64,000 bases of DNA from a virus. The translations under genes and the position numbers were made by a program. Shown one piece after another: positions 22,173-55,141 of this stretch (position 1 is its first letter; each line of letters begins with the position of its first letter). The notes beneath the pieces are model-generated. The model had not been told where the DNA came from. It made no database searches and saw only the letters and a program-made list of their open reading frames with translations. The stretch is from the UHGV virus genome UHGV-0211740. One strand, written 5' to 3'.

Positions 22173-22178
22173 AAATTG

Positions 22179-22207
22179 TTGCTTTTGATGCATCTTTGTG
22201 GTAAAAT
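22179..22207 (+). promoter_or_regulatory. promoter with conserved TGGTAAAATA extended -10
   Basis: TTGCTT (22179-22184), 17-nt spacer including TGG, TAAAAT (22202-22207). Confidence 0.45.
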
Positions 22208-22226
22208 ACATTAGTGAGGAATAATA

Positions 22227-22691
22227 ATGCTAAAGGTTAAATGTCAAACAAGGTTCAACCTAAAGCGTTTAGATCGCTTTTACAAAGAACTTGTGAAACT
22301 TGAGAGCAAAACAATAACCTACGGCTTTTATGACGAACCTCACCCTTCGGGCTTAAATATGGCGACATTGGCAGCTATTCACAACTTCGGTTGGAACGGG
22401 CTGCCTGTTCGCAATTTTATGGAGACAGCCTTTGCATTTCACAGCACTCAGCTGCAGACCTTAACAGAAAAATTGTTGAGAGCTATGGCTAGAGGGTCAA
22501 ATGCAGAGGCCATTCTTAGGCAGATGGGGGATACAGGGGCCAAAGCTATCCAGTTTGTTATTGAGGCTGGGCAGTTTAGTAATCCTACGGTTAGTGAGCA
22601 GTGGGCACAAGAGAAGGGCTTCAACGAAGCTATGCGGCATTATGATGTGCTGCTTGAATCTGCAACCTTTAAAATTGGACAGCAAAAATAA
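22227..22691 (+). CDS. hypothetical neck/head-completion protein
   Basis: 154-aa ORF with GAGGA RBS, in head-tail joining region. Confidence 0.45.
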   Translation: MLKVKCQTRFNLKRLDRFYKELVKLESKTITYGFYDEPHPSGLNMATLAAIHNFGWNGLPVRNFMETAFAFHSTQLQTLTEKLLRAMARGSNAEAILRQMGDTGAKAIQFVIEAGQFSNPTVSEQWAQEKGFNEAMRHYDVLLESATFKIGQQK

Positions 22692-22700
22692 GGGGGTTGA

Positions 22701-23126
22701 GTGGCAGCAGGTTATAGGCTGATAGGAAAGAACAGGCTAATACCTCGTAAAACATTCAAAGGTCGCCACAGAGTGTATAACAAAACAATTGGTGGGCCTT
22801 TTGTCAACGAGGGGTTAGAACTTGAATATGAAGAGTTTGATGTCTTAGAGTGTGTTGTGCAGCCGTTGACAGGAAGGGCAGCTAAAGATTACTCCTCTCA
22901 AATAAACCCTGAGGGTGACAGACAGTATGAGGCTTTTACAGTTTACTCATCAACCAAGTTGTATAGTCCGGATGAAGGAACGTATGCAATGGCTGATCAA
23001 ATTCAACTGCCTGACATACGTGGTGACTTGAAATGGTTTACCGTTTTAAAGTGTGATGCATATGTCACGTCTGGTGGGGGAAGATATAGATTTTTTGTGG
23101 TAGAAGAGCCTGAAGGAGAAAACTAA
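22701..23126 (+). CDS. hypothetical neck protein
   Basis: 141-aa ORF, GTG start after AAGGGGG RBS. Confidence 0.4.
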   Translation: MAAGYRLIGKNRLIPRKTFKGRHRVYNKTIGGPFVNEGLELEYEEFDVLECVVQPLTGRAAKDYSSQINPEGDRQYEAFTVYSSTKLYSPDEGTYAMADQIQLPDIRGDLKWFTVLKCDAYVTSGGGRYRFFVVEEPEGEN

Positions 23127-23677
23127 TGGAAGCTTTCGAAAAAGTTTTTTCTGATCTTGAAACCACTATTGCTAAACTCGTCAAGGTTGCTACAGGAAGA
23201 ACTGTGGTTCTGGCAGAAAGTTCTACCATACCGAAGCCGGAAGGTGAGTTTGTACTTTTACAAACATTGGCGATCAATCCTACCACTTGGGAAGACAATG
23301 AGTTTCAAGATGCGGAGGGTAATGCTTACGTCACCCACAGTTACACTGTTACTTATCTGTTAACAGCTTATCGTGGCAGGGCATATGCTGCACTGAGTAG
23401 AGTACTGCAAGCAATCAATCTCCCAATGTTTTATGACAAGTATTTCCCTCTGGGATCGTGCTTTGCCTACTCTAACAATTCAACAATCTCACCTCAAAGG
23501 GTGCCGTTGAATAAGCAGACGTATGAAAATAGAGCCACTGTAATGTTGACATTTAACGTAAGGTTTGTTGAGACAGACATTGGGGCTTTTGAAGATCTCC
23601 AGGGAATCAAGGCTGAAGTAACCACACATTTCCCTTCACCCGATGCTGGTCAAGCGGTTACAGACAGCGGTCAGTAA
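23126..23677 (+). CDS. hypothetical neck/tail terminator-like protein
   Basis: 183-aa ORF immediately upstream of the large tail protein. Confidence 0.4.
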   Translation: MEAFEKVFSDLETTIAKLVKVATGRTVVLAESSTIPKPEGEFVLLQTLAINPTTWEDNEFQDAEGNAYVTHSYTVTYLLTAYRGRAYAALSRVLQAINLPMFYDKYFPLGSCFAYSNNSTISPQRVPLNKQTYENRATVMLTFNVRFVETDIGAFEDLQGIKAEVTTHFPSPDAGQAVTDSGQ

Positions 23678-23749
23678 TCGTTATAATTGTGTAGTGTAAT
23701 GATTACACTGCGTGTTTGATATCCGTGCACAGATATTAAGAGGAAACAA

Positions 23750-25126
23750 ATGCCATATTTAGATAAAGTGGTAGATGTTACAGTTAACCTCGGAACCCAG
23801 CCTATTGACACTGTAGGTTTCGAAACTCCCCTGTTCATCGCTATCCACAATAACTTTACTGAGCGAGCTCGCGTATATGCTGAGCTGGACCAGATGGTGG
23901 AAGATGGTTTCGCACAAGGCTCTGCAGCATATGAGTTTGCAGCAAAAGCTTTTGGTGGTGTATTCCCTCCACAATATGTTATGATCGGCAGACAAGCCAA
24001 AGAAAAAACCACTGTAGATTTTAAAGGTATTGCTGCCGCAGCCGATACCGATGTCGTAATGACTATTGCAAAAGGTGACTACAATACTGCCTTGATAGTC
24101 CCTGTTTCTGGTGGAACAGCTGCAACTCAGATTGCAGAATCAATGAAGACCAAAATTGAAGCAGATGATAGCTTGAACGATATCACTGTAGTGGCTTCTG
24201 AAGGTGTTCTCACCATCACTGGTGACTGCACTGTTGGTTATCATACTGGTAACTATACCATTAAGAATGTCCCTAATGCTGAAAAACCTTCTACAGTAAT
24301 TGACAAGATCAATGCTGAGCGAGACAATTGGTACTTCCTGTGCCATGAAGACCACACTGACATTGAAGCGTGTGCTAAGTGGGCTCAGGCTAACTACAAG
24401 TTGCATGTCTACTCTACTTCAGAAGATGTAACTGGTAAAGACAGCAACATCGCCGCTAAACTGAAAGCTGCAAAATATGACAGTGTTGGTATGTACGACC
24501 CTCGCGCCGACAAAGACTTCCCAGAGGGCGGTATTATCGGTGCTATGGCATCCAACGACCCATCTTACGGCGACAGCTTACACTTAAAACAGATGCCTGG
24601 TGTGCTTGCACCATCACTGACATTGACCCAGCGCATGGCGATTTGGGAGAACAACATTAACTTCTACAGAACAATCAACGGTGTTGGTGCTTTCTGGGAA
24701 GGTAAATGTGCCTCTGGTCAGTATGCAGATGCTATCCGCTTCGCTCACTGGATTAAGTTTAGATCTGAAGAGTCCATGTTCGGATATATGCACCGCCGCT
24801 CTAATATGGGCCTGAGCATGAAGATGTCTGATGATGATCTGCCAGTTATCAAGTCTGTTCTGATGAACAACCCGATCAATACGGGCATTAAGAACGGTGC
24901 GATCCTGACAGGTTTTGACGAAGACAATAATGTATTCTACGACCCGATCATTACAGTTCCAAAACGTGCAGAAATCCCGACCAACCAGTTGGCTGCTCGT
25001 GTTCTGGAAGGTGTGAAAGTAGAACTGGTGTATAACAACGCTCTGCACTTCGTTCGTATCCGGATCAACGTTCTTCTGGACAAAGTTGGTTCTAAATCCA
25101 CCAATGCTGTTGCAATGACTGAATAA
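23750..25126 (+). CDS. major tail structural protein (tail sheath-like; assignment tentative)
   Basis: 458 aa; followed by a 157-aa gene, a chaperone pair and the tape measure, the order expected for sheath-tube-chaperone-TMP; a C-terminal segment (FWEGKCASG) is reminiscent of sheath proteins from memory. Confidence 0.4.
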   Translation: MPYLDKVVDVTVNLGTQPIDTVGFETPLFIAIHNNFTERARVYAELDQMVEDGFAQGSAAYEFAAKAFGGVFPPQYVMIGRQAKEKTTVDFKGIAAAADTDVVMTIAKGDYNTALIVPVSGGTAATQIAESMKTKIEADDSLNDITVVASEGVLTITGDCTVGYHTGNYTIKNVPNAEKPSTVIDKINAERDNWYFLCHEDHTDIEACAKWAQANYKLHVYSTSEDVTGKDSNIAAKLKAAKYDSVGMYDPRADKDFPEGGIIGAMASNDPSYGDSLHLKQMPGVLAPSLTLTQRMAIWENNINFYRTINGVGAFWEGKCASGQYADAIRFAHWIKFRSEESMFGYMHRRSNMGLSMKMSDDDLPVIKSVLMNNPINTGIKNGAILTGFDEDNNVFYDPIITVPKRAEIPTNQLAARVLEGVKVELVYNNALHFVRIRINVLLDKVGSKSTNAVAMTE

Positions 25127-25136
25127 GGAATACTAG

Positions 25137-25610
25137 ATGGAAACTCAAATTTTAACTCCTTATGCGTATGACCCTAAAAAGGTCAAACTGTATCTGATGC
25201 AGCAGCGTGTCACTGGCTTCGCTGCTGACACCAAGATCGTTGTTTCAAGAAATGAAGACAACATCTACCCTCACGTCGGTGTGGATGGCGAAATGTCTGC
25301 GGCTCTGTCTCGTAACCAATCCGGTGTTATGACTGTATCTTTGCAGAACACTTCTGTATGGAACGCCTACCTTTCTGACTGGCAGAAACAGGCATCAATC
25401 ACTGGTCTGGTATTCTTCCCGGTTCTGTTGGAAGGTAGCCAGGGTCCTGGTATTGCCACAATCGGTTGGATCCAGAAACAGCCCGACCTGACTTATGGAA
25501 CCGAAGTAGGTCAGCTGGACTGGGATATCGGTATCCTGGATGCATGGCTCAACCGTGACAACATCACTGGTGCTCTCACTGGCCTCGCAGGTCTTGCAGG
25601 TATTATCTAA
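25137..25610 (+). CDS. putative tail tube protein
   Basis: 157 aa directly after the sheath-like gene. Confidence 0.4.
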   Translation: METQILTPYAYDPKKVKLYLMQQRVTGFAADTKIVVSRNEDNIYPHVGVDGEMSAALSRNQSGVMTVSLQNTSVWNAYLSDWQKQASITGLVFFPVLLEGSQGPGIATIGWIQKQPDLTYGTEVGQLDWDIGILDAWLNRDNITGALTGLAGLAGII

Positions 25611-25628
25611 GAGCACACTTCAGCATAA

Positions 25629-25659
25629 GCCTCACCTTCAGGTGGGGCTTTTTGCTTTT
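25629..25659 (+). terminator. rho-independent terminator
   Basis: GCCTCACC-TTCA-GGTGGGGC hairpin then TTTTTGCTTTT. Confidence 0.6.
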
Positions 25660-25700
25660 ATGGTTCTGACACACGTTCTTGAATTGCTTGAAAGGTTAAA

Positions 25701-25729
25701 TTGACAATGCACCATAATCATGGTAAAAT
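25701..25729 (+). promoter_or_regulatory. promoter with conserved TGGTAAAATA extended -10
   Basis: TTGACA (25701-25706), 17-nt spacer, TGGTAAAAT (25721-25729). Confidence 0.5.
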
Positions 25730-25772
25730 ACACAAATATGGTGCACAACATGACTAATAAGGATGCTATAAA

Positions 25773-26246
25773 ATGGCTATAAACTTTAGACCTACAACAG
25801 AGATTGACTTAGCAGGGCACAACTTCGTGATCACCCACTGGGGGCCGATGAAGGCAATGAAAAACATGCCTAAGATTGGCAAGATTGTGGCTGTCCCGTT
25901 GGGTGCTATCGGTGGATCTATTATCTCAGGCGGTCAGAATATGGCAGAGGTCCTTCCTACTGCTCTGGCCTACCTGTTCCAGGAACTTGATGATAACTCT
26001 ATTGAAGAGTTATTTAAAATCTTGTTCGAAGATATTACTGTAGACGGTGTGGATAGGCTTAATCCCGATGTCGTGTTTGCAGGGCATCTGCTGGAAATGA
26101 TTAAACTGGCAGGTAAGGTTCTGGAGGTTAACTACGGCTGTTTTTTCACACAAGACGGTTTAGGAAGCCTTCTGGAGATGTTACAGCAGATGGGTATGAT
26201 TCAGCAGGTGAACAATCTGGATCAGACTCCGGAAGAGCAGGAATAA
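25773..26246 (+). CDS. tail assembly chaperone
   Basis: 157 aa, acidic C-terminus, directly upstream of tape measure; overlapped at its 3' end by an open -1 frame. Confidence 0.55.
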   Translation: MAINFRPTTEIDLAGHNFVITHWGPMKAMKNMPKIGKIVAVPLGAIGGSIISGGQNMAEVLPTALAYLFQELDDNSIEELFKILFEDITVDGVDRLNPDVVFAGHLLEMIKLAGKVLEVNYGCFFTQDGLGSLLEMLQQMGMIQQVNNLDQTPEEQE

Positions 26247-26506
26247 GCAAAGTTGTTGTGAGAGCCAGTGAGTGGGCAGCTAAGAATAGCTCACTTAACT
26301 GGTTCGACTTTCTTTGGTGTAGGGTGCTCAAGAACTTTAAAGGGGAAAATTTTGAATCGCTTAATCTTGCAGATATGGCGTATTTCCTCAAGCTCTGTGA
26401 GTATCTTGATATCGAAGAATTCCTAGATACCGTCCAAAACAGGGAAATGGAGCGGGAGCAGAAGGCTGCCGCAGCTGCTGCGAAAGCTAAGCGCAGGAGA
26501 GGATAA
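26132..26506 (+). CDS. tail assembly chaperone frameshift extension (GT-like, -1 frame)
   Basis: Frame open from 26132 to 26506 overlapping the last 115 nt of the chaperone gene; slippery heptamer T_TTT_TTC at 26141-26147 in the chaperone frame. Confidence 0.5.
   Translation, partial: LRLFFHTRRFRKPSGDVTADGYDSAGEQSGSDSGRAGISKVVVRASEWAAKNSSLNWFDFLWCRVLKNFKGENFESLNLADMAYFLKLCEYLDIEEFLDTVQNREMEREQKAAAAAAKAKRRRG
26141..26147 (+). other. candidate -1 programmed ribosomal frameshift slippery site
   Basis: TTTTTTC read as tgT TTT TTC (YGCFF) in the zero frame; matches X_XXY_YYZ. Confidence 0.5.
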
Positions 26507-26511
26507 TCTAA

Positions 26512-26549
26512 GGGCCGGATTCCTTTTCTGGGATCTGGCCCTTTTTATT
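26512..26549 (+). terminator. terminator-like hairpin
   Basis: GGGCC ... GGCCC stem followed by TTTTTATT. Confidence 0.4.
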
Positions 26550-26560
26550 ATGAGGAAAAC

Positions 26561-28900
26561 ATGGCTACAAATAAGATAGTTGCCACAACAGTCAACAAGA
26601 TTGGCTTTGAGATAGAGAACTCCTCCTACAAAAAAGCTGTAGAGAAAATTCGCAGTATCGGGAAGGAGTTCAGGAAACTGGGCGAGGATTTTAACTCAGC
26701 CAACCCCATGAGCAGATGGCAGGCAGTGGCTGTTAAAACTCAGCAGACAATGCAACGTGTTGCCAGACAGCAATCCCAAGCAAATGCTAAACTACACAGG
26801 GAGAGCGTTGCTCAGGCCAAGAAAGAGGCTGCAGTAAAGGCTGCAATAGAGCGCAGGGAGAATGCAAGACGTAAGCAAGCTGTAGGCAATCTTACCGCCA
26901 AAAACCCAGAGATGGCTAGGATGCGTAAGTTCTACCAGCAGCAAGCTAAAGAGGCCAAAAAAGCTGCCAAATCTGCACCAGTATCCTATGGTGGTTATAA
27001 GGCACCTAAGGCAAGAGTTCTTGCTAACGCCAAGTCTTTCAGATATATTCCCGGCAACCCTAACATGGGTGGGGTGGCTTCAGATCCTAATCTTGTGAAA
27101 GCCCAGACTGCTGCCATGAACCGTTATCACAGACAGCTAAGAAGGGACAGCAAGGCTGGGATGGATAATAGGCTTATGGCAGATCGTGAGGCAAGGAGAA
27201 CCCACCTCTACAACTCTGCGATAAGACTTTCTGCTAAATATGGTGCCGGATTCCGTGGCAGATTGTCTGGGTATTCGGAGTTAGAGTCCCGATTTGCTCG
27301 CGGGGAAATGAGTAAGTCAACCTTTAACGCCCACCTGTCTGCGTTGCAGTCTGGATTCAAAAGTGCCACCAGCCAAACTCTGACCCTCGGTGATGCTATG
27401 AGGGATTTGCGTAGATCTGTGATCAACGCTACAGCTGCGTATACAGCTTTTTCTGGATTTGCTGCAGTTAACAGATCCGGTCATATGATGGAGGGGGCAA
27501 GTGCTGCTCTTACTGCTGTTACTGGAGATCCAAACAAAGCCAACAGTGAAGTTGCGTTTGTCCAGCAGGAGGCTATGCGTCTTGGTTTTGACCTCAAGTC
27601 TGGTCTTCAGGGTTATTCTCAGATGGCGGTAAACGCCAAAAATCAGATGACAAACCAAGAGGTGCATGAGCTATTCTCTGCATACTCCCAATATGCTGCT
27701 GCTTACGGTGCCGATGAGGTAAAATACCAGCGCGGTATTATGGCAATCCAGCAAATGCTCGGTAAAGGGCAAGTAATGTCCGAAGAACTGAAGCAACAAC
27801 TTGCTGAAGCATTACCTGGTGCATACGAACCTTTTATCAAAGCTACCCAAGAGGCTTTTGGTCTTGCTGAGCTCTCCATGGATCAGTTCATGGACATGAT
27901 GAAAAAAGGTGAAGTTAAAACAGCCAAGATAATGAAGTATGTGGCTAAGTACATGAATGAGGCATCTGCAGCTGGTTATGAAAGAATGCAGAAGTCTAAC
28001 GTACTGGCAGAAAACAGACTGAAAACCTTCATCGAACTGTCCCGTCAGAAACTGTTCACACGTTGGGCAGATGAACTGACAGAGTTCTACTACACCCTGA
28101 TCCGCACAGGGGAAACTTTCCAGTTCCTATGGGACGCTTCTGGTGACTTTGTCAGCGGATTTGTGAGAGGTTTGAACTGGGTTGTTGGTGAACTAAACAA
28201 CACTATAGTTAAGATCCGTTTGTTTTTCCTTGAATGGGGAATTAAATGGGGGCTCATAACCGCCAAGACGAAGGAATATTCTGAAGAGATACATGACACC
28301 TTTAGCATGGCTAAATGGGCAGGGTATGCTGCTGCAATCATGCTGGTAGTGAACGCCCTTACAAAAGGGTTTGTTATGGCATCCATGCTTGTAAAAACAT
28401 TTAAGTTCCTCAGCAACCTGAGAGGTGCAGCTGGAGCTGCAGGTGCTGGTGCAGTAACCGCAGACGGCTCTGGAGGAGGAGCAGCCGGAAAAGGTGGTGG
28501 TGGCCTCAAGACACCTGGTGGCAAAGTTGGTCTGCTCGGTAAGCTGGGCATTATCGGTACAATACTAAGCGCCGGGGAATTATTTAATGACCGTTTCAAC
28601 CCGCTGAGTGAAAGAAATCAACAGCTGGATACCATCGGCGATATGATTCGTAAAGACATCATATCTGGAGGTAACGGGTTTGTTGATCCTCTAAGCACCT
28701 TGCCGGGAGGTACTCTTCCGTTACCAGGTGGCCCTGGTTTTGCTTCTCAGTTAAGAACTATGGAAATGCTACCTTTAGAGATCAGTGATGGTAAAATCAC
28801 GATTTCAATAGATGAGGGCGAGTTTAGCAAAATATTTGATGCAAAACTTGAGTGGGAGAACAGTAAAGATATCAACTTTATGTCCACAGATCTTTGGTAA
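26561..28900 (+). CDS. tail tape measure protein
   Basis: 779 aa; immediately after the chaperone frameshift pair; helix-rich N-terminal half with basic repeats, C-terminal Gly/Ala-rich hydrophobic segment (GAAGAAGAGAVTADGSGGGAAGKGGGG). Confidence 0.75.
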   Translation: MATNKIVATTVNKIGFEIENSSYKKAVEKIRSIGKEFRKLGEDFNSANPMSRWQAVAVKTQQTMQRVARQQSQANAKLHRESVAQAKKEAAVKAAIERRENARRKQAVGNLTAKNPEMARMRKFYQQQAKEAKKAAKSAPVSYGGYKAPKARVLANAKSFRYIPGNPNMGGVASDPNLVKAQTAAMNRYHRQLRRDSKAGMDNRLMADREARRTHLYNSAIRLSAKYGAGFRGRLSGYSELESRFARGEMSKSTFNAHLSALQSGFKSATSQTLTLGDAMRDLRRSVINATAAYTAFSGFAAVNRSGHMMEGASAALTAVTGDPNKANSEVAFVQQEAMRLGFDLKSGLQGYSQMAVNAKNQMTNQEVHELFSAYSQYAAAYGADEVKYQRGIMAIQQMLGKGQVMSEELKQQLAEALPGAYEPFIKATQEAFGLAELSMDQFMDMMKKGEVKTAKIMKYVAKYMNEASAAGYERMQKSNVLAENRLKTFIELSRQKLFTRWADELTEFYYTLIRTGETFQFLWDASGDFVSGFVRGLNWVVGELNNTIVKIRLFFLEWGIKWGLITAKTKEYSEEIHDTFSMAKWAGYAAAIMLVVNALTKGFVMASMLVKTFKFLSNLRGAAGAAGAGAVTADGSGGGAAGKGGGGLKTPGGKVGLLGKLGIIGTILSAGELFNDRFNPLSERNQQLDTIGDMIRKDIISGGNGFVDPLSTLPGGTLPLPGGPGFASQLRTMEMLPLEISDGKITISIDEGEFSKIFDAKLEWENSKDINFMSTDLW

Positions 28901-28911
28901 TTAAACTATGT

Positions 28912-28937
28912 GGGGGGGCTCTGGCCCCCTTTATTTT
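28912..28937 (+). terminator. rho-independent terminator
   Basis: G5/C5 stem (GGGGG-CTCTGG-CCCCC) followed by TTTATTTT. Confidence 0.5.
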
Positions 28938-28944
28938 ATCAGTG

Positions 28945-28973
28945 TTGTAAAAACGGCTATTTTATGATACAAT
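28945..28973 (+). promoter_or_regulatory. sigma70-like promoter with extended -10
   Basis: TTGTAA (28945-28950), 17-nt spacer, TGaTACAAT (28965-28973). Confidence 0.4.
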
Positions 28974-29006
28974 ATCTAAATGGTATCGGAGTGTCCTGGA
29001 GAGGTT

Positions 29007-29891
29007 ATGCCAAGTAATATAGTTGATGAAAAAGACCTGTACAAGCCTCAAGAGGTTAAATCTCCAAAGGCTGAAAAGGCAGAGCAGCAAACTGAAAGTG
29101 ATGTAAAGTATACTATGTTTGTCAGCGGTCTTAACTACGGCGGTCGCAATATAGAGATGAAGGGTAAAAACTTCACTAACGACCTTGCCATTATCTTCGA
29201 TCAGGTTGAGAATTATTCTTTTAAACAAACGGTCGATAAGTCAGATTTTGCAGTAGAAGATAAGTCTACCCTGTCAGATCATGCAGTGGTTAAGGATGGG
29301 GTATTTTCTTTCACTGGTCGGGTAAATACATCCCCTCATATAATTTATGAGCAAAACTACATTGATAGAAACACTGACTCCAAAAACCCTGCAGCGTCTA
29401 TGCGACCTGGTGCGGCATTAGAAGCTTTGACAGAGATCATTAATAAGCGACAGTTGGTTTCTTTAGTTACCGAGGAGAGACTCCTTGAAAACTACATTAT
29501 AACCAGTCTTTCTGCCAACAAGTCTGTTGGTGAAGGTGCTGCAATGGTGTTTGATGTGGAACTTACAGAATTCCGCACATTCTACTTGAACAAGGTTGTT
29601 AATGCAACTGTATACAGCAATCCTAAGAAGGTCGGCAAGACTCAGCAAAAAGGTGCTGTCAACGATTGCAAGAATGGTAGTAACGTAGGTAACAAGAGAG
29701 ACACAGGGGCATTTGCAGACACCGCGTCCACAAATGCTGCAGAAGAGTGGCAGCCATACAAATCTATGATGTGGACAGATGAAAACGGTGTTACCCAATC
29801 GGCTGCAGATTGGTACTATCAGGAATATGGAAGACCTTCCACCATAGTCCCATCTGAGCAGGGAAACTACAACAAAGTTAACGGAAAATAA
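29007..29891 (+). CDS. hypothetical tail/baseplate protein
   Basis: 294 aa from ATG 29007 (GGAGAGG RBS); first gene after the tape measure. Confidence 0.4.
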   Translation: MPSNIVDEKDLYKPQEVKSPKAEKAEQQTESDVKYTMFVSGLNYGGRNIEMKGKNFTNDLAIIFDQVENYSFKQTVDKSDFAVEDKSTLSDHAVVKDGVFSFTGRVNTSPHIIYEQNYIDRNTDSKNPAASMRPGAALEALTEIINKRQLVSLVTEERLLENYIITSLSANKSVGEGAAMVFDVELTEFRTFYLNKVVNATVYSNPKKVGKTQQKGAVNDCKNGSNVGNKRDTGAFADTASTNAAEEWQPYKSMMWTDENGVTQSAADWYYQEYGRPSTIVPSEQGNYNKVNGK

Positions 29892-29903
29892 GGGGAGCGT
29901 GTA

Positions 29904-30284
29904 ATGGAGCTTAAAGATTGGTGCGTAATCACCTTTGTGTGGGACATTGACGGCTTTCCTGATCAGACTATGCGTGTGGTTTTAGATAATGAAACCTATG
30001 AAATGCGTATGCAATGGAACGAGAGGGATGAGTCCTGGTGGTTATCTCTTGGTCCAGTAGGCGACAGTCCTTTAGTAACCAGAAAAGTAACAGCTTGTCA
30101 AGACATTTTAGACGGGCTGCATTACAGAGACGATTTACCGAAGGGTAGGCTAATGGCTCTGTCGTTTAAAGACGATCAATATTGGGGCAGGGTTGGAAGA
30201 TACAACCTTGGGGCCAGATCTGAGCTACAACTTGTATACGGCACCCCGGTTGATCTTTACAAGGAACAGCAAGGGTTAGACTAA
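29904..30284 (+). CDS. hypothetical tail/baseplate protein
   Basis: 126-aa ORF, Trp-rich, tightly packed in the tail module. Confidence 0.4.
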   Translation: MELKDWCVITFVWDIDGFPDQTMRVVLDNETYEMRMQWNERDESWWLSLGPVGDSPLVTRKVTACQDILDGLHYRDDLPKGRLMALSFKDDQYWGRVGRYNLGARSELQLVYGTPVDLYKEQQGLD

Positions 30285-31288: not shown

Positions 31289-31965
31289 TGGCAATAAACA
31301 GGAAAGATGCTGCTGTAAGATCCTTTATAGAAAAGATAATGAGGGACTACCACACCAGTATTAGAGCCAGAGTTGTCAGTGTAGATTACAGTATCCCCTC
31401 TGCAGCCGTGCAGCCAATAGCCGAAACCATGTTTGACGATGGGGATGTAGAAAGGTACCCTCTTATCTATGATGTCCCAATTCAGGTGATGTCTGCAAAT
31501 GGTGGTAAGGCAAGGTTAACACTTCCTATTAAAGCTGGTGATGTTGTAGGGCTGCAATTTTCAGAGAGAAATGAAAACAATAACGATGACCAGCAAACCC
31601 ACGGCCTGTTTCCAGGATGGGCTATCACCTCTGTTCATTCTGACTCTAATGCCTTGCAGATCGACCCTGATAATGTAGAGTTATGGAACGACAGGGTTTA
31701 TTTTAAACTAACACCTTCTGGTGATTTTGAGCTTCAAACACCGGGCGGAACATTACGGTGCGACAGTAGCGGGGAGTTTTCTTTTACTAACGGAGCTGCC
31801 AATTTACGCGCTGCCGTAGATGGGAATATTAGAATGAATGGTGCCACAATAGATCCGTCAGGTAGAATCATAACGGCTGCTGGTGTGGATTTGGATTCAT
31901 TCTATGCAGAATATAAAGGTCATACTCACTCTTGCCCTGATGGCGAGACCAGTGGACCGCACTAA
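31288..31965 (+). CDS. hypothetical baseplate protein
   Basis: 225-aa ORF with GAGGAGG RBS. Confidence 0.4.
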   Translation: MAINRKDAAVRSFIEKIMRDYHTSIRARVVSVDYSIPSAAVQPIAETMFDDGDVERYPLIYDVPIQVMSANGGKARLTLPIKAGDVVGLQFSERNENNNDDQQTHGLFPGWAITSVHSDSNALQIDPDNVELWNDRVYFKLTPSGDFELQTPGGTLRCDSSGEFSFTNGAANLRAAVDGNIRMNGATIDPSGRIITAAGVDLDSFYAEYKGHTHSCPDGETSGPH

Positions 31966-31977
31966 TAGAGGGCTTGC

Positions 31978-32694: not shown

Positions 32695-32703
32695 GGAGAA
32701 ATC

Positions 32704-33372: not shown

Positions 33373-33373
33373 G

Positions 33374-35971: not shown

Positions 35972-36006
35972 CATAAGGGGGCTGTTTGCCCCCTTCAGGA
36001 GAAAGA

Positions 36007-38487: not shown

Positions 38488-39806
38488 TCAACAACACCTT
38501 TACCTCTAAATGTGGCAATGGTGCCGCGCTGAAAGGTCAGGCAGAGTTCAGATCTACTCCAGAGGCTGGTCAGGTTATTGTTCGTGATGTTGTAGGCACA
38601 GCCCATAGATTCTACAATTTCAACAAAGATGGCACTTTCTCAGCCCCTGGTGGTTTTGTATGCCACACGGGTGGTGACTGGAACAACCAGTTTGGGCCTA
38701 ACAACCCGTCAAAAATAATGGCTGGTAATGTCAATGGGCCTGAGGGTTCGATGGTCGTTGGTGGATTGTCTGTGGCGTTTTCTGGAAACTATGCTTTCCA
38801 AATGGCTGGTCGCCTTGATCGATTATACACCAGGTCTATCGAGGGAGGTAACCATAGGGCGTGGAACAAAGTCATACAACACAGAGGCCAGGGTCTGGGG
38901 ACAGACGATCTTAATAGCTATGATGGAACTCGTGACGGTATCTATCATCAGGGTGCAAATTCTGACGCACTCACATCCCGTCATTATCCTGCTCCGTACG
39001 CTGGTACGCTGATTGTTTATCAGAACACTGCTAACCAGTTGACAGGGTGTGTGCAGGAGTATATAACCTATTTTGGTGACAGGTATACTCGTGCTGGCAA
39101 CACGAATGGTGAAGATTTTGTTTGGGAAGAGTGGAGACACGATGCGGGTAAGGGAATCCAGTTAAGACCTAATTACACTTTTGGTGAAACCAGTAATCAA
39201 CTGGAAATTCATGTCGGTGCTAATGGTCTTCCCTCCAACGCAGATGGCTTACCTAAGAATGATGCTGTACTCCATTATTGGGGTAACGGCAGCACAGGGG
39301 ATCGTCCAAACGTGTTAGAGTTTAAGGTTCGTGACGAGTCTCAAGCAAATTGGGTATGGCATTGCGGTACCTTGCCAGATAACTCAAGATATCTTTCTGT
39401 AAATGGTGCTGTGAATTGCACATCTGTCAATCAGAGTTCTGACAGAGACCTGAAAGATAACATATCTGTTATTCCTGATGCGTTAGAAGCTATCCGGAAG
39501 ATGAAGGGTTATACTTACACTCTTAAAGAGAACGGTATGCCTTATGCAGGTGTTATAGCACAAGAGGTGCTTGAAGCGCTGCCGGAAGCAGTTAGCTCTT
39601 TCGTGCAAAGAAAGGAAATCCCAAACCCTGATCAAGATGGAACTCCTTTGATAACAGAGGAAAGATTCTACAGCGTGGATTACGCAGCCGTAACAGGCTT
39701 GCTTGTCCAGGTTTGCAGGGAACAGGATGATAAAATAACCGCCCTTGAGGAGCAGGTTAAAAAATTGACAGAGGTTGTTACTGGGTTGCAAGAGAAATTG
39801 AAGTAA
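38469..39806 (+). CDS. tail fibre C-terminal segment with S74-type intramolecular chaperone domain (no own start codon upstream of 38718)
   Basis: Frame open from 38469; protein-like sequence with no ATG/GTG/TTG until 38718; C-terminus SDRDLKDNISVIPDALEAIRKMKGYTYTLKENGMPYAGVIAQEVLEALPEAV fits the fibre auto-chaperone signature; contains a repeat of the GTLIVYQN.AN..TGC.QEY domain also present in the 36007 protein. Confidence 0.55.
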   Translation, partial: ERTEDLINNTFTSKCGNGAALKGQAEFRSTPEAGQVIVRDVVGTAHRFYNFNKDGTFSAPGGFVCHTGGDWNNQFGPNNPSKIMAGNVNGPEGSMVVGGLSVAFSGNYAFQMAGRLDRLYTRSIEGGNHRAWNKVIQHRGQGLGTDDLNSYDGTRDGIYHQGANSDALTSRHYPAPYAGTLIVYQNTANQLTGCVQEYITYFGDRYTRAGNTNGEDFVWEEWRHDAGKGIQLRPNYTFGETSNQLEIHVGANGLPSNADGLPKNDAVLHYWGNGSTGDRPNVLEFKVRDESQANWVWHCGTLPDNSRYLSVNGAVNCTSVNQSSDRDLKDNISVIPDALEAIRKMKGYTYTLKENGMPYAGVIAQEVLEALPEAVSSFVQRKEIPNPDQDGTPLITEERFYSVDYAAVTGLLVQVCREQDDKITALEEQVKKLTEVVTGLQEKLK

Positions 39807-39813
39807 CTGTTTT

Positions 39814-39843
39814 GCCCTCGCTTCGGCGGGGGCTTTTTGTTTG
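39814..39843 (+). terminator. rho-independent terminator
   Basis: GCCCTCGC-TTCG-GCGGGGGC hairpin then TTTTTGTTTG. Confidence 0.65.
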
Positions 39844-39845
39844 TA

Positions 39846-39874
39846 TTGCGTATTAACTTAAAATCTGGTAAAAT
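39846..39874 (+). promoter_or_regulatory. promoter with conserved TGGTAAAATA extended -10
   Basis: TTGCGT (39846-39851), 17-nt spacer, TGGTAAAAT (39866-39874). Confidence 0.45.
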
Positions 39875-39905
39875 AACTATCATACTTGTTTAACCTGGAG
39901 GCACA

Positions 39906-40496
39906 ATGTTTTTATGGGAAAGGCCTAGATACCTTCCAGATATTAGATTAGAGTTGCTGGCAGATATTGTCACGTTTAAAAGCCCGTTTACAGGTAAAAC
40001 GCAAAAAGTAACCTATGCCACACCTAACTGGAAAGGCACTTTGACGGTTTCCAATATTAGCGAATCGCAGTTGCTTGAGCTCAAGAGTTTTGTTGACCAA
40101 GTTTACAAAGATGGGAATATCTTTCTTATCAAAACTTATGGTCATTCGGTGACAGCCAATGAGCCAATCGCTCTCGGACCGACTGGTAACGACGATTTTT
40201 TGAAGACGGTTGGTTGGGAGCCGAACAGGGATATAGCCAGAGCTGGGGATAAGATATCTGTTAATGATGAGTTGAAAGTGGTAACAGCTCCAGTACGTAG
40301 TGATGGTGTTGGGGCCGCTGTTATAAACATATCTCCAAGACTTAGGAAACCTATTGCAGCAGGGGATACTATGAAGATAATAACTCAATCCCCGAAGGGT
40401 AGGTTTCATATCAGAGATATTTATAAAATTAAGCAAAAAGTTGATGCTATGCAAAAAGGCGATAATATAGTTATCAATTTCTTTGAGGATTTCTAA
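39906..40496 (+). CDS. putative minor tail / tail-tip protein
   Basis: 196-aa ORF with GGAGG RBS; first of three small genes preceding the J-like gene. Confidence 0.4.
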   Translation: MFLWERPRYLPDIRLELLADIVTFKSPFTGKTQKVTYATPNWKGTLTVSNISESQLLELKSFVDQVYKDGNIFLIKTYGHSVTANEPIALGPTGNDDFLKTVGWEPNRDIARAGDKISVNDELKVVTAPVRSDGVGAAVINISPRLRKPIAAGDTMKIITQSPKGRFHIRDIYKIKQKVDAMQKGDNIVINFFEDF

Positions 40497-40497
40497 G

Positions 40498-41049
40498 ATG
40501 ATCAGAGCTCCATTAGATAATTTATTTATTGAAAATATAGAGCTTGATGGCGTTGAGATCTTAATTGCTGCAAAACTGGAGCTACCAACAGGAACTGTCA
40601 GGGTGTGCTCAGGCACTGGTGTTGTAGTAATTGAAGGGCAACATTTTATAGGTATAGGTGGATCAGCTACATTAACTGCTGTGTCGGAGAAAGATGCCAC
40701 CAACTTCGGATCTGTGGTAGCAACATTGAACGGGTTTGACCCTAAATATGTTGGTGATTTGTTGAAGACTGAGTATTCAGGTTGTCGTGCCACGTTATAC
40801 ATTACAGCCATGGAGAATGGTCTGCCAGTAACCACTAATGGCTTGTTTGACGGACTTATAACAGATATGGCTATTCAGACAGGAGAGAATAGTGCTCTAT
40901 CTATATCCATATCTTCAATCTTCAACAGCTGGCTAAGAGGGTTCCCTTATCGCTACACAGAAGAAAGTCATAGCTCAAGAAACGACAACGATAGATTTTT
41001 TAAATATGTGGATCAGGTGGCTAGTCGCCCGATCATTTGGGAGGTTTAA
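40498..41049 (+). CDS. putative minor tail / tail-tip protein
   Basis: 183 aa from ATG 40498; stop overlaps next start (TAATG). Confidence 0.4.
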   Translation: MIRAPLDNLFIENIELDGVEILIAAKLELPTGTVRVCSGTGVVVIEGQHFIGIGGSATLTAVSEKDATNFGSVVATLNGFDPKYVGDLLKTEYSGCRATLYITAMENGLPVTTNGLFDGLITDMAIQTGENSALSISISSIFNSWLRGFPYRYTEESHSSRNDNDRFFKYVDQVASRPIIWEV

Positions 41050-41477
41050 TGAGTATCATACATCCTCGTTTAGTAGACTGGCAAGAAAGATTGTTGAAGG
41101 TGTTTGACGAAGAGTCAGCCGTTCCGTTCGAGTGGGGATTTCACGATTGTTGCACTTTTGCAGCCAAGTGTGTTGATGCTCAGTATGGAACAGATATTCT
41201 CTCTAACTTCGAAGGCACGTACAAAACAGAACTGGAAAGTAAGAGATGGTGTATGTTACATTTCAAAACCACCAACTTGCCTACCATTTTTGATCTCTTT
41301 ATGACCAGACTGGATACTCCTAAACAGGTTCAGCGTGGAGATATTGTTATTTTCAAAGGTCTGAACGGACTTACCGCTGGCGTGTTTTGGAACAATCAGA
41401 TTTGGTCAAAAGGTGATAAAGGGGTCTTTATGTTTGACATGAAAGATTCTATCGTTGTTGATGTCTGGAGGTATTAA
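41049..41477 (+). CDS. putative tail-associated NlpC/P60-like peptidase
   Basis: 142 aa; candidate catalytic Cys context GFHDCCTFAAKCV resembles the G-x-D-C motif of NlpC/P60 peptidases; position directly upstream of the J-like gene. Confidence 0.4.
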   Translation: MSIIHPRLVDWQERLLKVFDEESAVPFEWGFHDCCTFAAKCVDAQYGTDILSNFEGTYKTELESKRWCMLHFKTTNLPTIFDLFMTRLDTPKQVQRGDIVIFKGLNGLTAGVFWNNQIWSKGDKGVFMFDMKDSIVVDVWRY

Positions 41478-44400
41478 TGCCAATTGCAATGATTGATAAC
41501 ATCGTTGCTTCTGCAAGATCTTCGAGCTATGACTGGAACGCATCCAAGGCGGCTCTGGCTGACAGTCTGAACACTGTTACCACCAGAACTCTGGATAAGA
41601 TTTTTGAGGGCAACAAATCTTACAGAGGCCAGCAAGATAGACAAAAGCTTCTCAGATCTTCAGCTGCACCTTGTTCTGTAGTGTATGGGAAGACACGCAC
41701 ATCGGGATTGCTTGCGTTTTTGGAGCAGGACAGGGACAGAACCCTCCATTGTGCCATTGTTCTTGCCAATCACCCTCTGGAAGGTGTAGAAGACATACTT
41801 ATCGACGGTAATCCTATTTCTTCATATGGAGATTTGGTATCGTGGGAGCTGCATAACGACAGAAAAACATCTGATCCTTTCATGGGGACACACTGCCCTT
41901 CGTGGTCACCAGACATGATAGGTAGAGGGATCAGTTGGCTGCGTGCCAGCTTCAAATTTGACCCTAACAAGTTTCCTTTTGGGTTGCCAAACGTTACACT
42001 CGTCAAGGTTGGTAAAAAATGCTATGATCCTCGCATCAGCAAAGAGGTGTATACCAATAACGCGGCCTTGGTGATTCTGGACTATTTAAGAACATACCTT
42101 AAATGTCCTGACGAAACCATCAACTGGGAGTCCTTCAAGGAAGCTGCCAACATATGTGACGAGGCTGTAAGAAACGCTGACGGAACCAGTGAGCGTCGTT
42201 ACACCATCAATGGTGAGTTCGACATGGATGAGGCTCCAGCAAGCATCATGGCAGAAATGCTGAAAGCCTGTGGTGCAGATCTTAGCTATGTGGCTGGTAA
42301 GTATGGATTGCTGGTTGGGGCCTATTATGGACCAGCAACAATGACACTGGGTGAGGATTGTGTTTGTGGTGAAGTCAAGATCTATCCAGAAGCTTCCTTT
42401 GACAAAAGATCCAACACAATAACTGGTAGATTCACCAGTCCTGCCAAAGGATACTCTGAAACAGATTTCCCATCAGTGTTTGTTCCAGAGTGGATAGAGA
42501 AGGATGGGGAAAGAAAGATAATCGATATAGATTATCGTTTTGTCACCAGTCCTTATCAGGCCCAGCGTGTTTCCGCGATATTCTTAAGACGTGCCAGAGC
42601 TGGTAGGATTATTGAAGTCACGTGCAATATGCGTGGTTTTAAATTTAAGCCTGGACGCTACGTCACAATGAACCTCCCAAGTATTGGCATAGTAGGCCAA
42701 GAGATGAGAGTTCTTGAGTGGGAGTTCACTAAAAAGGGCGGTGTTAAGGTAAAACTTCGTCAAGATGCGAAAGAGTGGAATGATGCCACAGGTCAACTTC
42801 CTGACTCTGGTGATGTAGATATTCCTGTGTCCCCATCTGGTGTGGCTCAACCGCAAAACTTCAGATTCTCTGTTCTTCAAGCTGGAGAAGTAACTCATGG
42901 TGTTTTAGCTTGGGACAACGTTGGGACTTACGCTCAAAACATTGTGCAGGTCAGGAAAAATGGAGAGATTGTCTGGACAGCACAGACAGTTGAGCAGTTT
43001 GTCCGTGTTGAAGGTCTGACTAAAGGGTCTTACACAGCCACTGTTGTTGCAACATCTTATAAAGGCGGTGTATCTCCAGAAGCGTACTGTGAGTTTAACA
43101 TTCAGGCACCTGAGGCTCCGGTTTCTGTAGAAGTTAAGCAGGGATATTTTGCTATCACCTTAATTCCGCACAGCAGGGATTTAGCAAGTGTCAGCACCCA
43201 GTATGACTTTTGGACATCCGGCATGACAAGGTTGCCTGACACTAGTGATGCAACCGTCACTTCAAAAGCTACTCGCATGGGTGTTGGTTCAACTTGGACA
43301 TCTGAAGGTCTGCAGAACGATAAGGTTTATTATTGGTATATTCGAACCACAAACGCTTTTGGTAGTTCTCAGTTTGTAGAGTGTGCTGCACGCTGCTATA
43401 CCTCTATTGAAGATTTGATGCCTCAGATAGATGCTGAATTTAAAAAGACAGAGACTTATAAAGAGTTGATGAGCACTTTAGATTCTTCTATCGAAGAGGT
43501 TGAAAATCGGGTCACAGAACTTAACAAGTACATGGATGGTAGAGTTGATGAAGCTTTTGATCACATGGAAAGTGAGTTCTCTAGAGTAGACAAGCTGTAT
43601 GCTCAGCTGGGAGATAGGGTAGGGGTATTCATCCAAGAAACCAGTGAAAACTTCCAAGATGTTAATGGAACGCTTACCGCTCTCGACCAGAAACTGGTAG
43701 CCACTCAGAACAAGTTTACAGATGATCTCTCTAAAGAAAGTGGCAAGCTAACCTCTCTGATCCAGACCACTAACAAAGCTACAACTGATCTTCTTAATAA
43801 GAAAACAGAAGCTTTGGACGAGAAGATTGTTTCGACCAGGGGCGAGTTGGAAGATGCTTTAGCACAGGAAAGCGCTGAGCTGAACTCTCTGATTGTATCT
43901 ACCAATAAAACGACTACAGATCTCCTTAATCAGAAAACCGAGGCACTGGACAATAAGCTGACGGCAACGAAAGGTGAGTTGACCAACAACTTGAATAATG
44001 AGAGTGCTAAACTGTCGTCGTTGATTGAGACAACCAACAAATCCACCACTGATCTTCTTAACAAGAAAACAGATGCGTTGGATGAAAAACTGGTTGCTGC
44101 ACAGGGTGAGCTAACTGAGCAGATTGGCGATGTTGAAAAAGGTTATCTGGCTGGAGATAAGAGCCTAGAAGGTAAGTTGAATACTCAGAGATCTGAGTTG
44201 GATGCAAGCATTCTGAGTACTAATCAGGCTACTGTGGATTTGCTGAATAGAACTTCTCAGACTCTTGACCAGAAGATTAGCCAGACTAACGCCACGGTAT
44301 CTAAAAACTACACCACTCTAGATGGCAAGATCAACACCACCAAATCTGATCTCAATACGTTGATCTCTACCACCAACAAGGCCACAACGGACCTGCTGAA

Positions 44401-45622
44401 TCAGAAAACTGCAGCCTTATCTGAACAATTAACCTCTGCTAAAGGGCAGATTACAACCAACACCAATAATATTACGGGGTTGGATAATAAGCTTACCCAA
44501 GCTAAGAAAGATTTGTCTGCAAATATTTCTGAAACTAATCAGGCCACTGTTGACCTGATTAACGGAACAGCGTCAGCTATTCGTCAAGAACTTGCTGTTG
44601 CTAAGCAGGAGATCATTGATGATGTTGGAGATGTGTCCGAGATCAGGGCTGCAGTAGCTACAACATCTAAGGCTGTAACCGACTTAGAGGGCAAAGTAAA
44701 CGCTCAGTGGGGCACAAAAATACAGGTAGACTCCGCAGGGAATAAATATGTTGCAGGTATCCAGTTGGGGATGGAAGGGTCTGGGGGCCAAGTTCAATCC
44801 TACTTCATGGTTAGTGCAAACAATTTTGCGGTATATAACCCTGGGAATGGAACAGCAACCCTTGCCTTTGCAATCAAGAACAACCAGGCGTTCTTGAAAG
44901 ATGCCTTCATAGAGAATGGCACAATCTCTTCAGCCAAGATTGCACAAGAGATTTCGTCAAACAACTACGATGGCAACGGGTACCACAAATACGGCTGGTA
45001 TATTAACAAGAATGGGCACGCCCAGTTTATGGATGTGTGGGTGAAAGGCAACATCAACGCTAGTGCAGGTAACTTCACAGGAGCAGTTAACGCCACCAGC
45101 GGTACCTTCCGTGGCGATGTTTATGCCAACAACGGTAGTTTTAGAGGTACCATAGACGCAACAGGTGGTACTTTCCGTGGGCGTGTAGAAGCTTCTGTTA
45201 TCCGTGCCAACCAGTTTGAAGGTGCAATTGTTGCACACAGGACCTATGGTGACTGTCCTCCGGTATATAACTCCCAGCAGAGGGTTTGCCGCTGGAAATG
45301 GAGATATGTGGATAACGTGCAAGGCCAAGGTAAGAACGTAACATTCTTCTTTAAACTGAACGGTACGCTCGCCAGCTCCCAGCTTAACGTTTGGATAGCC
45401 GGACATCAAATCCTTGCAGGTAAGAAGTACGGAAACGACAACAACGGCATGTGTGCGGTAGGGATAACGGGTCTAGGTGAACAGACCATAGACATTATCG
45501 TTGAAATTTACACACCATGGTCAACGTCAAGCGTGACAGGAGTTACAATATCTTGTCCTACTGTTGTGGTGAGCCGATCCAACTCAAGTTTCCAAGGCCC
45601 TTGGAACGAGTCTCACGACTAA
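41477..45622 (+). CDS. tail tip / central fibre protein, lambda J-like (host specificity protein family)
   Basis: 1381 aa; several blocks match lambda gpJ from memory (GYFAITLIPH, WYIRTTNAFGSSQFVE, KYVAGIQLGMEGSGGQVQSYFMVSANNFAVYNP...AFLKDAFI); central run of about ten degenerate repeats (TTNK.TTDLLN.KTEALD.KL). Confidence 0.75.
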   Translation: MPIAMIDNIVASARSSSYDWNASKAALADSLNTVTTRTLDKIFEGNKSYRGQQDRQKLLRSSAAPCSVVYGKTRTSGLLAFLEQDRDRTLHCAIVLANHPLEGVEDILIDGNPISSYGDLVSWELHNDRKTSDPFMGTHCPSWSPDMIGRGISWLRASFKFDPNKFPFGLPNVTLVKVGKKCYDPRISKEVYTNNAALVILDYLRTYLKCPDETINWESFKEAANICDEAVRNADGTSERRYTINGEFDMDEAPASIMAEMLKACGADLSYVAGKYGLLVGAYYGPATMTLGEDCVCGEVKIYPEASFDKRSNTITGRFTSPAKGYSETDFPSVFVPEWIEKDGERKIIDIDYRFVTSPYQAQRVSAIFLRRARAGRIIEVTCNMRGFKFKPGRYVTMNLPSIGIVGQEMRVLEWEFTKKGGVKVKLRQDAKEWNDATGQLPDSGDVDIPVSPSGVAQPQNFRFSVLQAGEVTHGVLAWDNVGTYAQNIVQVRKNGEIVWTAQTVEQFVRVEGLTKGSYTATVVATSYKGGVSPEAYCEFNIQAPEAPVSVEVKQGYFAITLIPHSRDLASVSTQYDFWTSGMTRLPDTSDATVTSKATRMGVGSTWTSEGLQNDKVYYWYIRTTNAFGSSQFVECAARCYTSIEDLMPQIDAEFKKTETYKELMSTLDSSIEEVENRVTELNKYMDGRVDEAFDHMESEFSRVDKLYAQLGDRVGVFIQETSENFQDVNGTLTALDQKLVATQNKFTDDLSKESGKLTSLIQTTNKATTDLLNKKTEALDEKIVSTRGELEDALAQESAELNSLIVSTNKTTTDLLNQKTEALDNKLTATKGELTNNLNNESAKLSSLIETTNKSTTDLLNKKTDALDEKLVAAQGELTEQIGDVEKGYLAGDKSLEGKLNTQRSELDASILSTNQATVDLLNRTSQTLDQKISQTNATVSKNYTTLDGKINTTKSDLNTLISTTNKATTDLLNQKTAALSEQLTSAKGQITTNTNNITGLDNKLTQAKKDLSANISETNQATVDLINGTASAIRQELAVAKQEIIDDVGDVSEIRAAVATTSKAVTDLEGKVNAQWGTKIQVDSAGNKYVAGIQLGMEGSGGQVQSYFMVSANNFAVYNPGNGTATLAFAIKNNQAFLKDAFIENGTISSAKIAQEISSNNYDGNGYHKYGWYINKNGHAQFMDVWVKGNINASAGNFTGAVNATSGTFRGDVYANNGSFRGTIDATGGTFRGRVEASVIRANQFEGAIVAHRTYGDCPPVYNSQQRVCRWKWRYVDNVQGQGKNVTFFFKLNGTLASSQLNVWIAGHQILAGKKYGNDNNGMCAVGITGLGEQTIDIIVEIYTPWSTSSVTGVTISCPTVVVSRSNSSFQGPWNESHD

Positions 45623-45630
45623 CCTTTAAA

Positions 45631-45656
45631 GCCCCGCTTCGGCGGGGTTTATTTTT
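45631..45656 (+). terminator. rho-independent terminator
   Basis: GCCCCGC-TTCG-GCGGGGT hairpin then TTTATTTTT. Confidence 0.65.
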
Positions 45657-45665
45657 ATGCTCAGA

Positions 45666-45694
45666 TTGACTATTGTTACAAAATTTGGTAAAAT
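45666..45694 (+). promoter_or_regulatory. promoter with conserved TGGTAAAATA extended -10
   Basis: TTGACT (45666-45671), 17-nt spacer, TGGTAAAAT (45686-45694). Confidence 0.5.
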
Positions 45695-45727
45695 ACCTTG
45701 TAGAGATTTTCATACCGGAGGAGTGAA

Positions 45728-55132: not shown

Positions 55133-55141
55133 TATATCTGA

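Follow-up and report, generated by a model that had tools for sequence, protein, structure and literature searches.

In phage rV5, 33 sigma-70-like promoters have been reported, 11 of which have extended -10 regions (Kropinski et al. 2013, Virol J 10:76, PMC3606486). A MEME motif, TggTAaAAtA, was also described in eight copies located 5' of the late genes 27-66, and these copies were termed 'putative late promoters' (PMC3606486, Additional file 4, Table S4C). Kropinski et al. likened this motif to the T4 late promoter TATAAATA, reported homologues of gp33, gp45 and gp55 to be absent from rV5, and took the sigma-70-like promoters found throughout rV5 to suggest an unmodified polymerase (PMC3606486). 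Here, a corresponding set of sites was analysed in a stretch of 64,000 nucleotides (nt) from the virus genome UHGV-0211740 (the window in the following), in which the decamer TGGTAAAATA and its variants stand 5' of virion genes. These sites are probably the virion-gene (late) promoters of a Vequintavirus, of the extended -10 type and read by the host RNA polymerase with little dependence on a -35 element. Since the late-promoter motif was already published for rV5 in 2013, the present result is a confirmation and a modest extension of that work; its increments are two extra sites, a quantitative contrast between two promoter classes and a subfamily-wide footprint of the motif. No later paper extending the rV5 late-promoter motif was found in the literature searched.

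Promoters of the extended -10 (TGn) class of Escherichia coli carry a TG one base 5' of a near-consensus -10 hexamer, their -35 element is weak or dispensable, and any -35 present is set off from the -10 by a 17-nt spacer. The sites in the window share these features; they differ from the E. coli class in that the hexamer is almost always TAAAAT instead of TATAAT, framed as TGGTAAAATA in this phage, and in that the class is restricted to a single functional block of the genome. It has been reported that gp39 of Thermus phage P23-45 and AsiA of T4 disable -35 recognition, and that extended -10 promoters escape this interference with sigma region 4 (PMC3950348). In the P23-45 system, the early and host promoters belong to the -10/-35 class, while the late phage promoters are of the extended -10 class with little or no need of a -35, so that a factor displacing sigma region 4 can direct the polymerase to late genes, and gp39 also acts in antitermination (PMC3950348). 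A like arrangement of the two classes is predicted from the promoter sequences of the phage studied here, although its late promoters still have TTG at -35. Within the same subfamily, a conserved early promoter, AAAA(N3)TGTTGAC(N19)TATAAT, has been described for Certrevirus (Buttimer et al. 2020, PMC7344957). It represents a complementary early/middle class, marked by a strong -35 of TTGACA as are the 31 promoters of the TTGACA set treated below, whereas a late-gene motif was not reported in that paper and the TGnTAAAAT class in the late region of POP17, a Certrevirus, is undescribed there.

By sequence identity, the DNA of the window is assigned to a Vequintavirus, an rV5-like E. coli myophage. 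An unannotated Vequintavirinae genome shares 98% identity with it, and the figure is about 93% for rV5-like E. coli myophages such as RudolfGeigy, Murica and JES2013. According to the annotation of RudolfGeigy, virion genes fill the plus strand from approximately 14 kilobases (kb) to 61 kb, a block of about 47 kb, in the order terminase, portal, prohead protease, scaffold, capsid, neck, sheath, tube, chaperones, tape measure, baseplate and many fibres.

The exact decamer TGGTAAAATA occurs four times in the window, at 22199, 25721, 39866 and 45686, always on the plus strand, against 0.16 copies expected, and four copies were reached in none of 100 shuffles. At all four sites a TTG begins 20 nt 5' of the start of the decamer (0.00 expected), and the gap of 14 nt between TTGnnn and the decamer gives a spacer of 17 nt to the TAAAAT hexamer. 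These four sites had been proposed in an initial annotation of the sequence together with three variants, TGGTACAATA at 16023, TGATACAATA at 28965 and TGTTAAAATA at 52017; all seven were found as described, and TTG stands at the same spacing in each variant. The layout of a partial -35 (TTGnnn), a spacer of the optimal 17 nt and TGn followed by TAAAAT is, as read from these sequences, the canonical geometry of a sigma-70 extended -10 promoter. The genes downstream, described initially as structural, are all virion genes in the annotation of RudolfGeigy, and the distance of 25-40 nt given for them was approximate, the measured values from the end of the decamer to the start codon being 18, 42, 30 and 32 nt for the sites 22199, 25721, 39866 and 45686, respectively. 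The initial list of sites was real but incomplete, since a motif check of each gap between genes in the late block of the window added a site at 17697 and a hybrid at 14045.

In the resulting catalogue, all late-block sites are intergenic and co-directional with the genes, and end 18-68 nt 5' of a start codon. Their intervals on the plus strand are given here from the -35 onwards, and rV5 numbers denote the sequences of Table S4C that they match. The hybrid promoter predicted before the large terminase gene (14045-14073) combines a consensus -35 (TTGACA), a 17-nt spacer and TGG with TAACAT (TGGTAACAT). The candidate before the portal gene (start 16100) is a variant at 16003-16032 (TTGCCA-N14-TGGTACAATA; rV5 P064), and that before the prohead protease gene (ATG 17725) lies at 17677-17706 (TTGCAA-N14-TGATAAAATA; not in the 2013 list). 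The neck/tail-completion operon (ATG 22227) is preceded by the site at 22179-22208 (TTGCTT-N14-TGGTAAAATA; P056), and the tail chaperone and tape-measure genes (ATG 25773) by the site at 25701-25730 (TTGACA-N14-TGGTAAAATA; P051). Next come the variant before the tail tube initiator/baseplate operon (ATG 29007) at 28945-28974 (TTGTAA-N14-TGATACAATA), the site before tail fiber/baseplate genes (ATG 39906) at 39846-39875 (TTGCGT-N14-TGGTAAAATA; P040), that before the baseplate wedge (gp6-like) gene (GTG 45728) at 45666-45695 (TTGACT-N14-TGGTAAAATA; P036), and the variant before the short tail fiber gene (ATG 52056) at 51997-52026 (TTGCAT-N14-TGTTAAAATA; P030). The extended TG at -15/-14, one base 5' of the hexamer, and the TTG at 17-nt spacing are present in 8/8 late sites of the window. 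The -10 hexamer is TAAAAT in six of the eight and TACAAT in the other two; both hexamers are near TATAAT and keep its A (position 2) and its T (position 6). A full TTGACA -35 is found in only one site.

The rV5 list differs from this catalogue in several respects. P036 and P051 appear also in the sigma-70 promoter list of Kropinski et al., P048, which lies beside the 28965 site, was aligned in a different register, and a -35 TTG at fixed spacing was undescribed. The prohead-protease site (17697) is missing from it, and conservation beyond rV5 was not covered. P055 of rV5 (TGGTAGAAGA) is inside a coding sequence and probably spurious, and was left out of our counts.

The motif was then scanned in the complete RudolfGeigy genome of 137,380 base pairs (bp), joined from three pieces. 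The exact decamer has four copies there; 4/4 belong to the late block and run in the direction of its genes. The looser TG.TAAAAT matches outside this block are mostly within coding sequence and have no -35. The genome-wide scan that had been suggested as a check of the initial proposal thus places the exact decamer, in this relative, in the structural block only. For comparison, an early-type set was defined as the TTGACA-N16-18-TAnnnT promoters outside the late block of RudolfGeigy (n=31). These 31 promoters carry 17 different -10 hexamers, with TAAAAT in 2/31, TG in 12/31, TGG in 1/31 and an A after the -10 in 8/31, while in the eight late sites of the window TAAAAT occurs in 6/8, TG in 8/8, TGG in 5/8 and the A after the -10 in 8/8 (Fisher p 2e-4 to 3e-3 for the late sites vs the 31 TTGACA promoters). 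There are two promoter classes: the early one has a fixed -35 and a variable -10, and the late one has a fixed extended -10 and a variable -35. Between RudolfGeigy and the window, 0/88 positions of the promoter elements differ as against 30/632 other positions, the second figure being inflated by an indel; lower substitution in the promoter elements is suggestive only.

The footprint of the motif in the subfamily Vequintavirinae was followed through late regions located by means of the sheath protein (48-59% identical to that of the window), with 30-41 kb taken from each relative. The relatives were LNA4 (E. coli, Seunavirus), GE_vB_MG (Salmonella, Seunavirus), Kashira (Serratia), K54_rec2 (Klebsiella), Hena1 (Erwinia, Henunavirus) and POP17 (Pectobacterium, Certrevirus), with the phi92-like phage Paula as outgroup. 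TG.TAAAAT was strongly biased to the gene strand in every Vequintavirinae genome compared. It was found at orthologous gaps in six lineages on six host genera, namely before the prohead protease, the neck operon, the baseplate wedge, the terminase and the gene that follows the tape measure, while the flanks, and often the -35, diverge between lineages. The neck site (22199) has the same exact decamer and the same TTG throughout the seven genomes (the window and six other Vequintavirinae). Conservation at the wedge and post-tape-measure sites is limited to TG.TAAAAT(A), and the '-35' is TTTnnn or the T-tract of the upstream terminator; for the wedge site (45666), the conserved part of the orthologues in the six relatives is TG.TAAAATA alone. 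The orthologues of the prohead-protease site have TTGCAA-N14-TGTTAAAATA in LNA4, Kashira, K54_rec2 and Hena1, and a spacer 1 nt shorter in GE_vB_MG. Those of the terminase site consist of a hairpin, TTTATT and TGGTAAAATC in Kashira, K54_rec2 and Hena1. The post-tape-measure site has a hairpin and TGATAAAAT in LNA4, GE_vB_MG, Kashira and K54_rec2, and TGCTAAAAT in POP17. In Paula, a hairpin and TGATAAAAT were likewise found, at this site only, and the late promoters carry TTGACA boxes, so an extension of the class to phi92-like phages is not supported.

When 30 cross-genus sites, chosen by the pattern TG.TA.AAT, were stacked, TAAAAT was present in 29/30, and the -35 position started with TTG in 18, with TTT in 8 and otherwise in 4. 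The TTG is thus degenerate (TTTnnn or absent) at 12/30 sites of the relatives and is not class-defining, though it is kept in this phage. Together with the single TTGACA among the eight window sites, the 12 sites without TTG show the weak or dispensable -35 that is typical of extended -10 promoters. An upstream activator site was also considered and rejected, since none of the columns 5' of the -35 was conserved in the 30 stacked sites. As a control without motif pre-selection, the late-block gaps of Kashira, K54_rec2 and Hena1 were taken by the gene coordinates of the depositors. The exact motif was present in 7/14, 7/13 and 5/14 of these gaps, against 0.04, 0.21 and 0 expected, respectively. 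The top 6-mer in the gaps was TAAAAT (21 vs 1.1 expected), the top 8-mers were GGTAAAAT (11 vs 0.17 expected) and TGGTAAAA (10 vs 0.12 expected), and the remaining enriched words were terminator-derived. The conserved core of the class is, on these alignments, TGnTAAAAT, with the G at -13 and the trailing A varying among sites and lineages.

These contrasts bear on a simpler explanation, in which the sites would be ordinary constitutive sigma-70 promoters of no temporal class that boost the structural genes after terminators, with timing left to genome copy number or some other means, and in which the uniform -10 would reflect common descent and strength tuning. Against it stand the sharp difference of the late set from the 31 TTGACA promoters of RudolfGeigy and the retention of TGnTAAAAT at orthologous sites of six lineages in which the -35 decayed, a pattern consistent with selection that acts specifically in the late block for recognition independent of the -35. 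The architecture is nevertheless fully host-like, and the sequences should work with the unmodified polymerase that the rV5-wide sigma-70-like promoters suggested to Kropinski et al. (PMC3606486). The normal TTGACA boxes in the late region of Paula and the failure to find a switching factor in the tblastn and domain scans described below are also on its side. Weighing both, we regard purely constitutive promoters as unlikely.

The resemblance to the T4 late promoter deserves separate consideration. In T4, gp55 reads TATAAATA with gp33 and the gp45 clamp. The sites might accordingly be T4-type late promoters, or promoters for another phage-encoded factor recognising the -10, such as a late sigma-like protein. 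The near-invariance of TAAAAT (29/30), position 3 included, would suit such a factor, and many phage proteins are of no known function; the likeness to the T4 sequence was itself remarked by Kropinski et al. (PMC3606486). In its best register, however, TGGTAAAATA fits TATAAATA at only 5/8 positions as read from the sequence, and neither the conserved TG at -15/-14 nor the TTG at 17-nt spacing is a feature of T4 late promoters. Furthermore, the homologues of gp33, gp45 and gp55 are those reported absent in rV5 (PMC3606486), and no sigma-like domain was detected in the 29 proteins scanned, which are a part of the proteome. The reading as T4 late promoters was rejected on the motif mismatch, the conserved TG and -35 TTG and the reported lack of these homologues, and the whole family of explanations by a dedicated -10-reading factor seems quite improbable.

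The surroundings of the sites raise the question whether the motif is a promoter at all. A GC-rich hairpin followed by a T-tract precedes three of the four exact TGGTAAAATA sites. The intrinsic terminator after the tail tube gene (25627-25650, plus strand; 10 pairs, 6 GC, T-tract; rV5 t052) is 5' of the 25701 promoter, that at 39814-39833 (plus strand; rV5 t041) is 12 nt 5' of the -35 of the 39846 promoter, and that at 45629-45650 (plus strand) is 15 nt 5' of the -35 of the 45666 promoter. Another intrinsic terminator follows the tape-measure gene (28912-28931, plus strand; rV5 t049), a hairpin at 51976-51997 abuts the -35 of the 51997 promoter, and a weak hairpin (14018-14033) lies just 5' of the hybrid terminase promoter. 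No terminator was found 5' of the 22199 promoter, so the initial description of the sites as usually placed just after a terminator hairpin applies to three of the four exact sites and fails at this one; the same absence was noted at 17697. With several sites abutting terminator T-tracts, the motif could in principle be a by-product of such tracts, mark a site of RNA processing or serve as an operator to some phage DNA-binding protein. On the minus strand, a copy of TGATAAAATA (28941 to 28932) is indeed nothing but the T-tract of the post-tape-measure terminator read in reverse complement, and a small winged-helix protein is encoded at 8769-9119. These explanations fit poorly with the strict strand bias with the genes, the fixed register of TG, one base and the hexamer, the TTG at 17-nt spacing, and a position 18-68 nt 5' of start codons and ribosome-binding sites, and the motif is also present where a terminator is absent (22199 and 17697). 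A known RNA element was rejected, since Rfam at gathering thresholds gave only transfer RNAs (tRNAs) and no family overlapping any motif site. A non-promoter motif is hence very improbable.

The minus-strand TGATAAAATA copy, at 28932-28941, has no -35, points antisense into the tape-measure gene and is probably a by-product. As for the winged-helix protein, its 116 residues match Pfam HTH_36 / DUF6945 and PHROG 12838 ('replication initiation protein'), and it is named 'putative transcriptional regulator' in RudolfGeigy. Its gene is located just 3' of an early-type promoter (8705-8734), and the protein is the only DNA-binding candidate in the window.

The proposal of the initial annotation, a phage promoter class built on an extended -10, is supported at the level of sequence by the geometry, the restriction to the late block, the contrast between classes and the conservation in the subfamily. 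For extended -10 late promoters, the following mechanism can be envisaged. The host RNA polymerase holoenzyme would recognise TGnTAAAAT mainly through sigma regions 2 and 3 and would start transcription approximately 7 nt 3' of the -10. With most sites directly after an intrinsic terminator, the structural block would be split into terminator-promoter modules, which would restart transcription before the portal, prohead protease, neck, chaperone/tape-measure, baseplate and fibre operons. A late preference could arise if a phage function weakened -35-dependent initiation at the TTGACA early promoters, from which the extended -10 promoters would escape. This follows the scheme described for AsiA of T4 and for gp39 of Thermus phage P23-45: early promoters of the -10/-35 class and late promoters of the extended -10 class are what the class contrast and the distribution over the genome blocks show here. 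An AsiA- or gp39-like switch behind the late timing is plausible but only inferred by this analogy. Antitermination of the gp39 type would suit a late block with about a dozen intrinsic terminators.

Several observations weigh against this account. The literature searched gave no experimental data on start sites or timing in any of the Vequintavirinae, so that the case for promoter activity and 'late' timing is made from sequence logic and gene content; searches on Vequintavirinae transcriptomes, the decamer and PVP-SE1 promoters gave nothing, the one preprint match concerning a T5-like phage. A TTG, a 17-nt spacer, a TG and a 5/6 match to the -10 should allow plain sigma-70 to fire from the start of infection, and a temporal switch is not needed by the sequence. 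Because of the pattern by which the 30 cross-genus sites were chosen, the information content of their core is mostly by construction. The A at hexamer position 3, near-invariant in 29/30 of them, leaves room for an extra recognition factor: this position is read weakly by sigma-70, which is not known to demand an A there. The expected switching factor was not recovered either. A tblastn search with validated T4 AsiA gave only T4-like genomes among the matches listed, which is a weak negative. Pfam and PHROGs scans covered 29 of about 230 proteins, from the pre-late block of the window and from the hypothetical proteins of medium size in RudolfGeigy. They gave no domain of a sigma-like or polymerase-binding kind, with the exception of an Srd-like protein encoded outside the window (rV5 gp11 / RudolfGeigy bas52_0056). 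This protein matched the PHROGs entries 'decoy of host sigma70' (E = 2e-12) and 'Srd anti-sigma factor', which makes it a putative sigma-70 decoy; the annotation as 'anti-sigma factor' had no support from Pfam.

A broader proposal is that the Vequintavirinae possess a -35-independent late class with the core TGnTAAAAT, which would imply a phage protein that re-targets RNA polymerase away from the phage's own TTGACA promoters by displacing or occupying sigma region 4, as a functional counterpart of T4 AsiA or Thermus phage gp39, possibly with antitermination at the many terminators of the late block, or else a new factor reading the invariant TAAAAT. We offer this proposal tentatively and consider it doubtful. 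The question behind it, namely what shuts the consensus early promoters and favours the extended -10 ones, is testable in E. coli. The rV5-like phages are widely used in typing of E. coli O157, biocontrol and therapy cocktails, and their transcription programme has never been mapped. An easily recognised late-promoter class would provide an annotation rule for the whole subfamily, and could be a source of compact promoters with late specificity for use in reporter phages and in phage engineering.

Some further elements were noted around the promoters. A terminator-like hairpin at 16049-16068 (8 bp, 5 GC, T-tract; rV5 't064ABC') is located 3' of the 16003 promoter, starting about 10 nt past the predicted start site and ending 30 nt 5' of the portal start codon. 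Since it comes after the promoter, the reverse of the order at the other sites, it would be an own-leader terminator for the 16003 transcripts. Strong terminators with no promoter after them occur in the late block at 20594-20616 (after the major capsid gene), around 21505-21535 (after the next gene), 26510-26543 (in the gap between chaperone and tape-measure genes) and 55140-55161 (in front of the largest fibre gene). Presumably these act as attenuators within operons that set expression ratios, or need antitermination. Around the -10 of the 25701 promoter there is a perfect 9-nt inverted repeat, TGCACCATA / TATGGTGCA, at 25708-25716 and 25737-25745, with the arms 20 nt apart, which is identical in RudolfGeigy and rV5. 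Judged from its position, it could be an operator acting on this promoter alone, or form a hairpin in read-through transcripts from upstream.

Late-type motifs were also seen outside the virion block. In the otherwise 'early' rightward arm of RudolfGeigy two are intergenic, one at 75563 (TTGTAA-N14-TGCTAAAATA before bas52_0086/0087) and one at 87601 (TGTTAAAATA after a hairpin, 3' of the putative holin region), and late-expressed genes may be embedded there. In four distant relatives, TG.TAAAAT(A/G) stands right after a tRNA gene, and a TTGACA box with a second -10 (TGATAACAT) comes no more than about 5 nt behind it, a conserved tandem of both promoter classes. In the window itself, six tRNA genes (Arg-TCT, Tyr, Ser, Thr, Met/Ile-CAT and Pro) are clustered at 11660-12468, just 5' of the late block, and early-type TTGACA promoters at 11165 and 11573 drive this cluster.

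At the start of the late block, the large terminase gene (14153-15999) is in pieces, with open reading frames at 14153-14803 and 14911-15999, and is annotated as a three-piece join in RudolfGeigy; no Rfam intron family reached the gathering score in this region. Finally, 18 records named 'Campylobacter phage' (e.g. MG065654 and MG065666) have about 92.8% identity to positions 22000-30000 of the window, and the labels on these deposits look like mislabelling or contamination.

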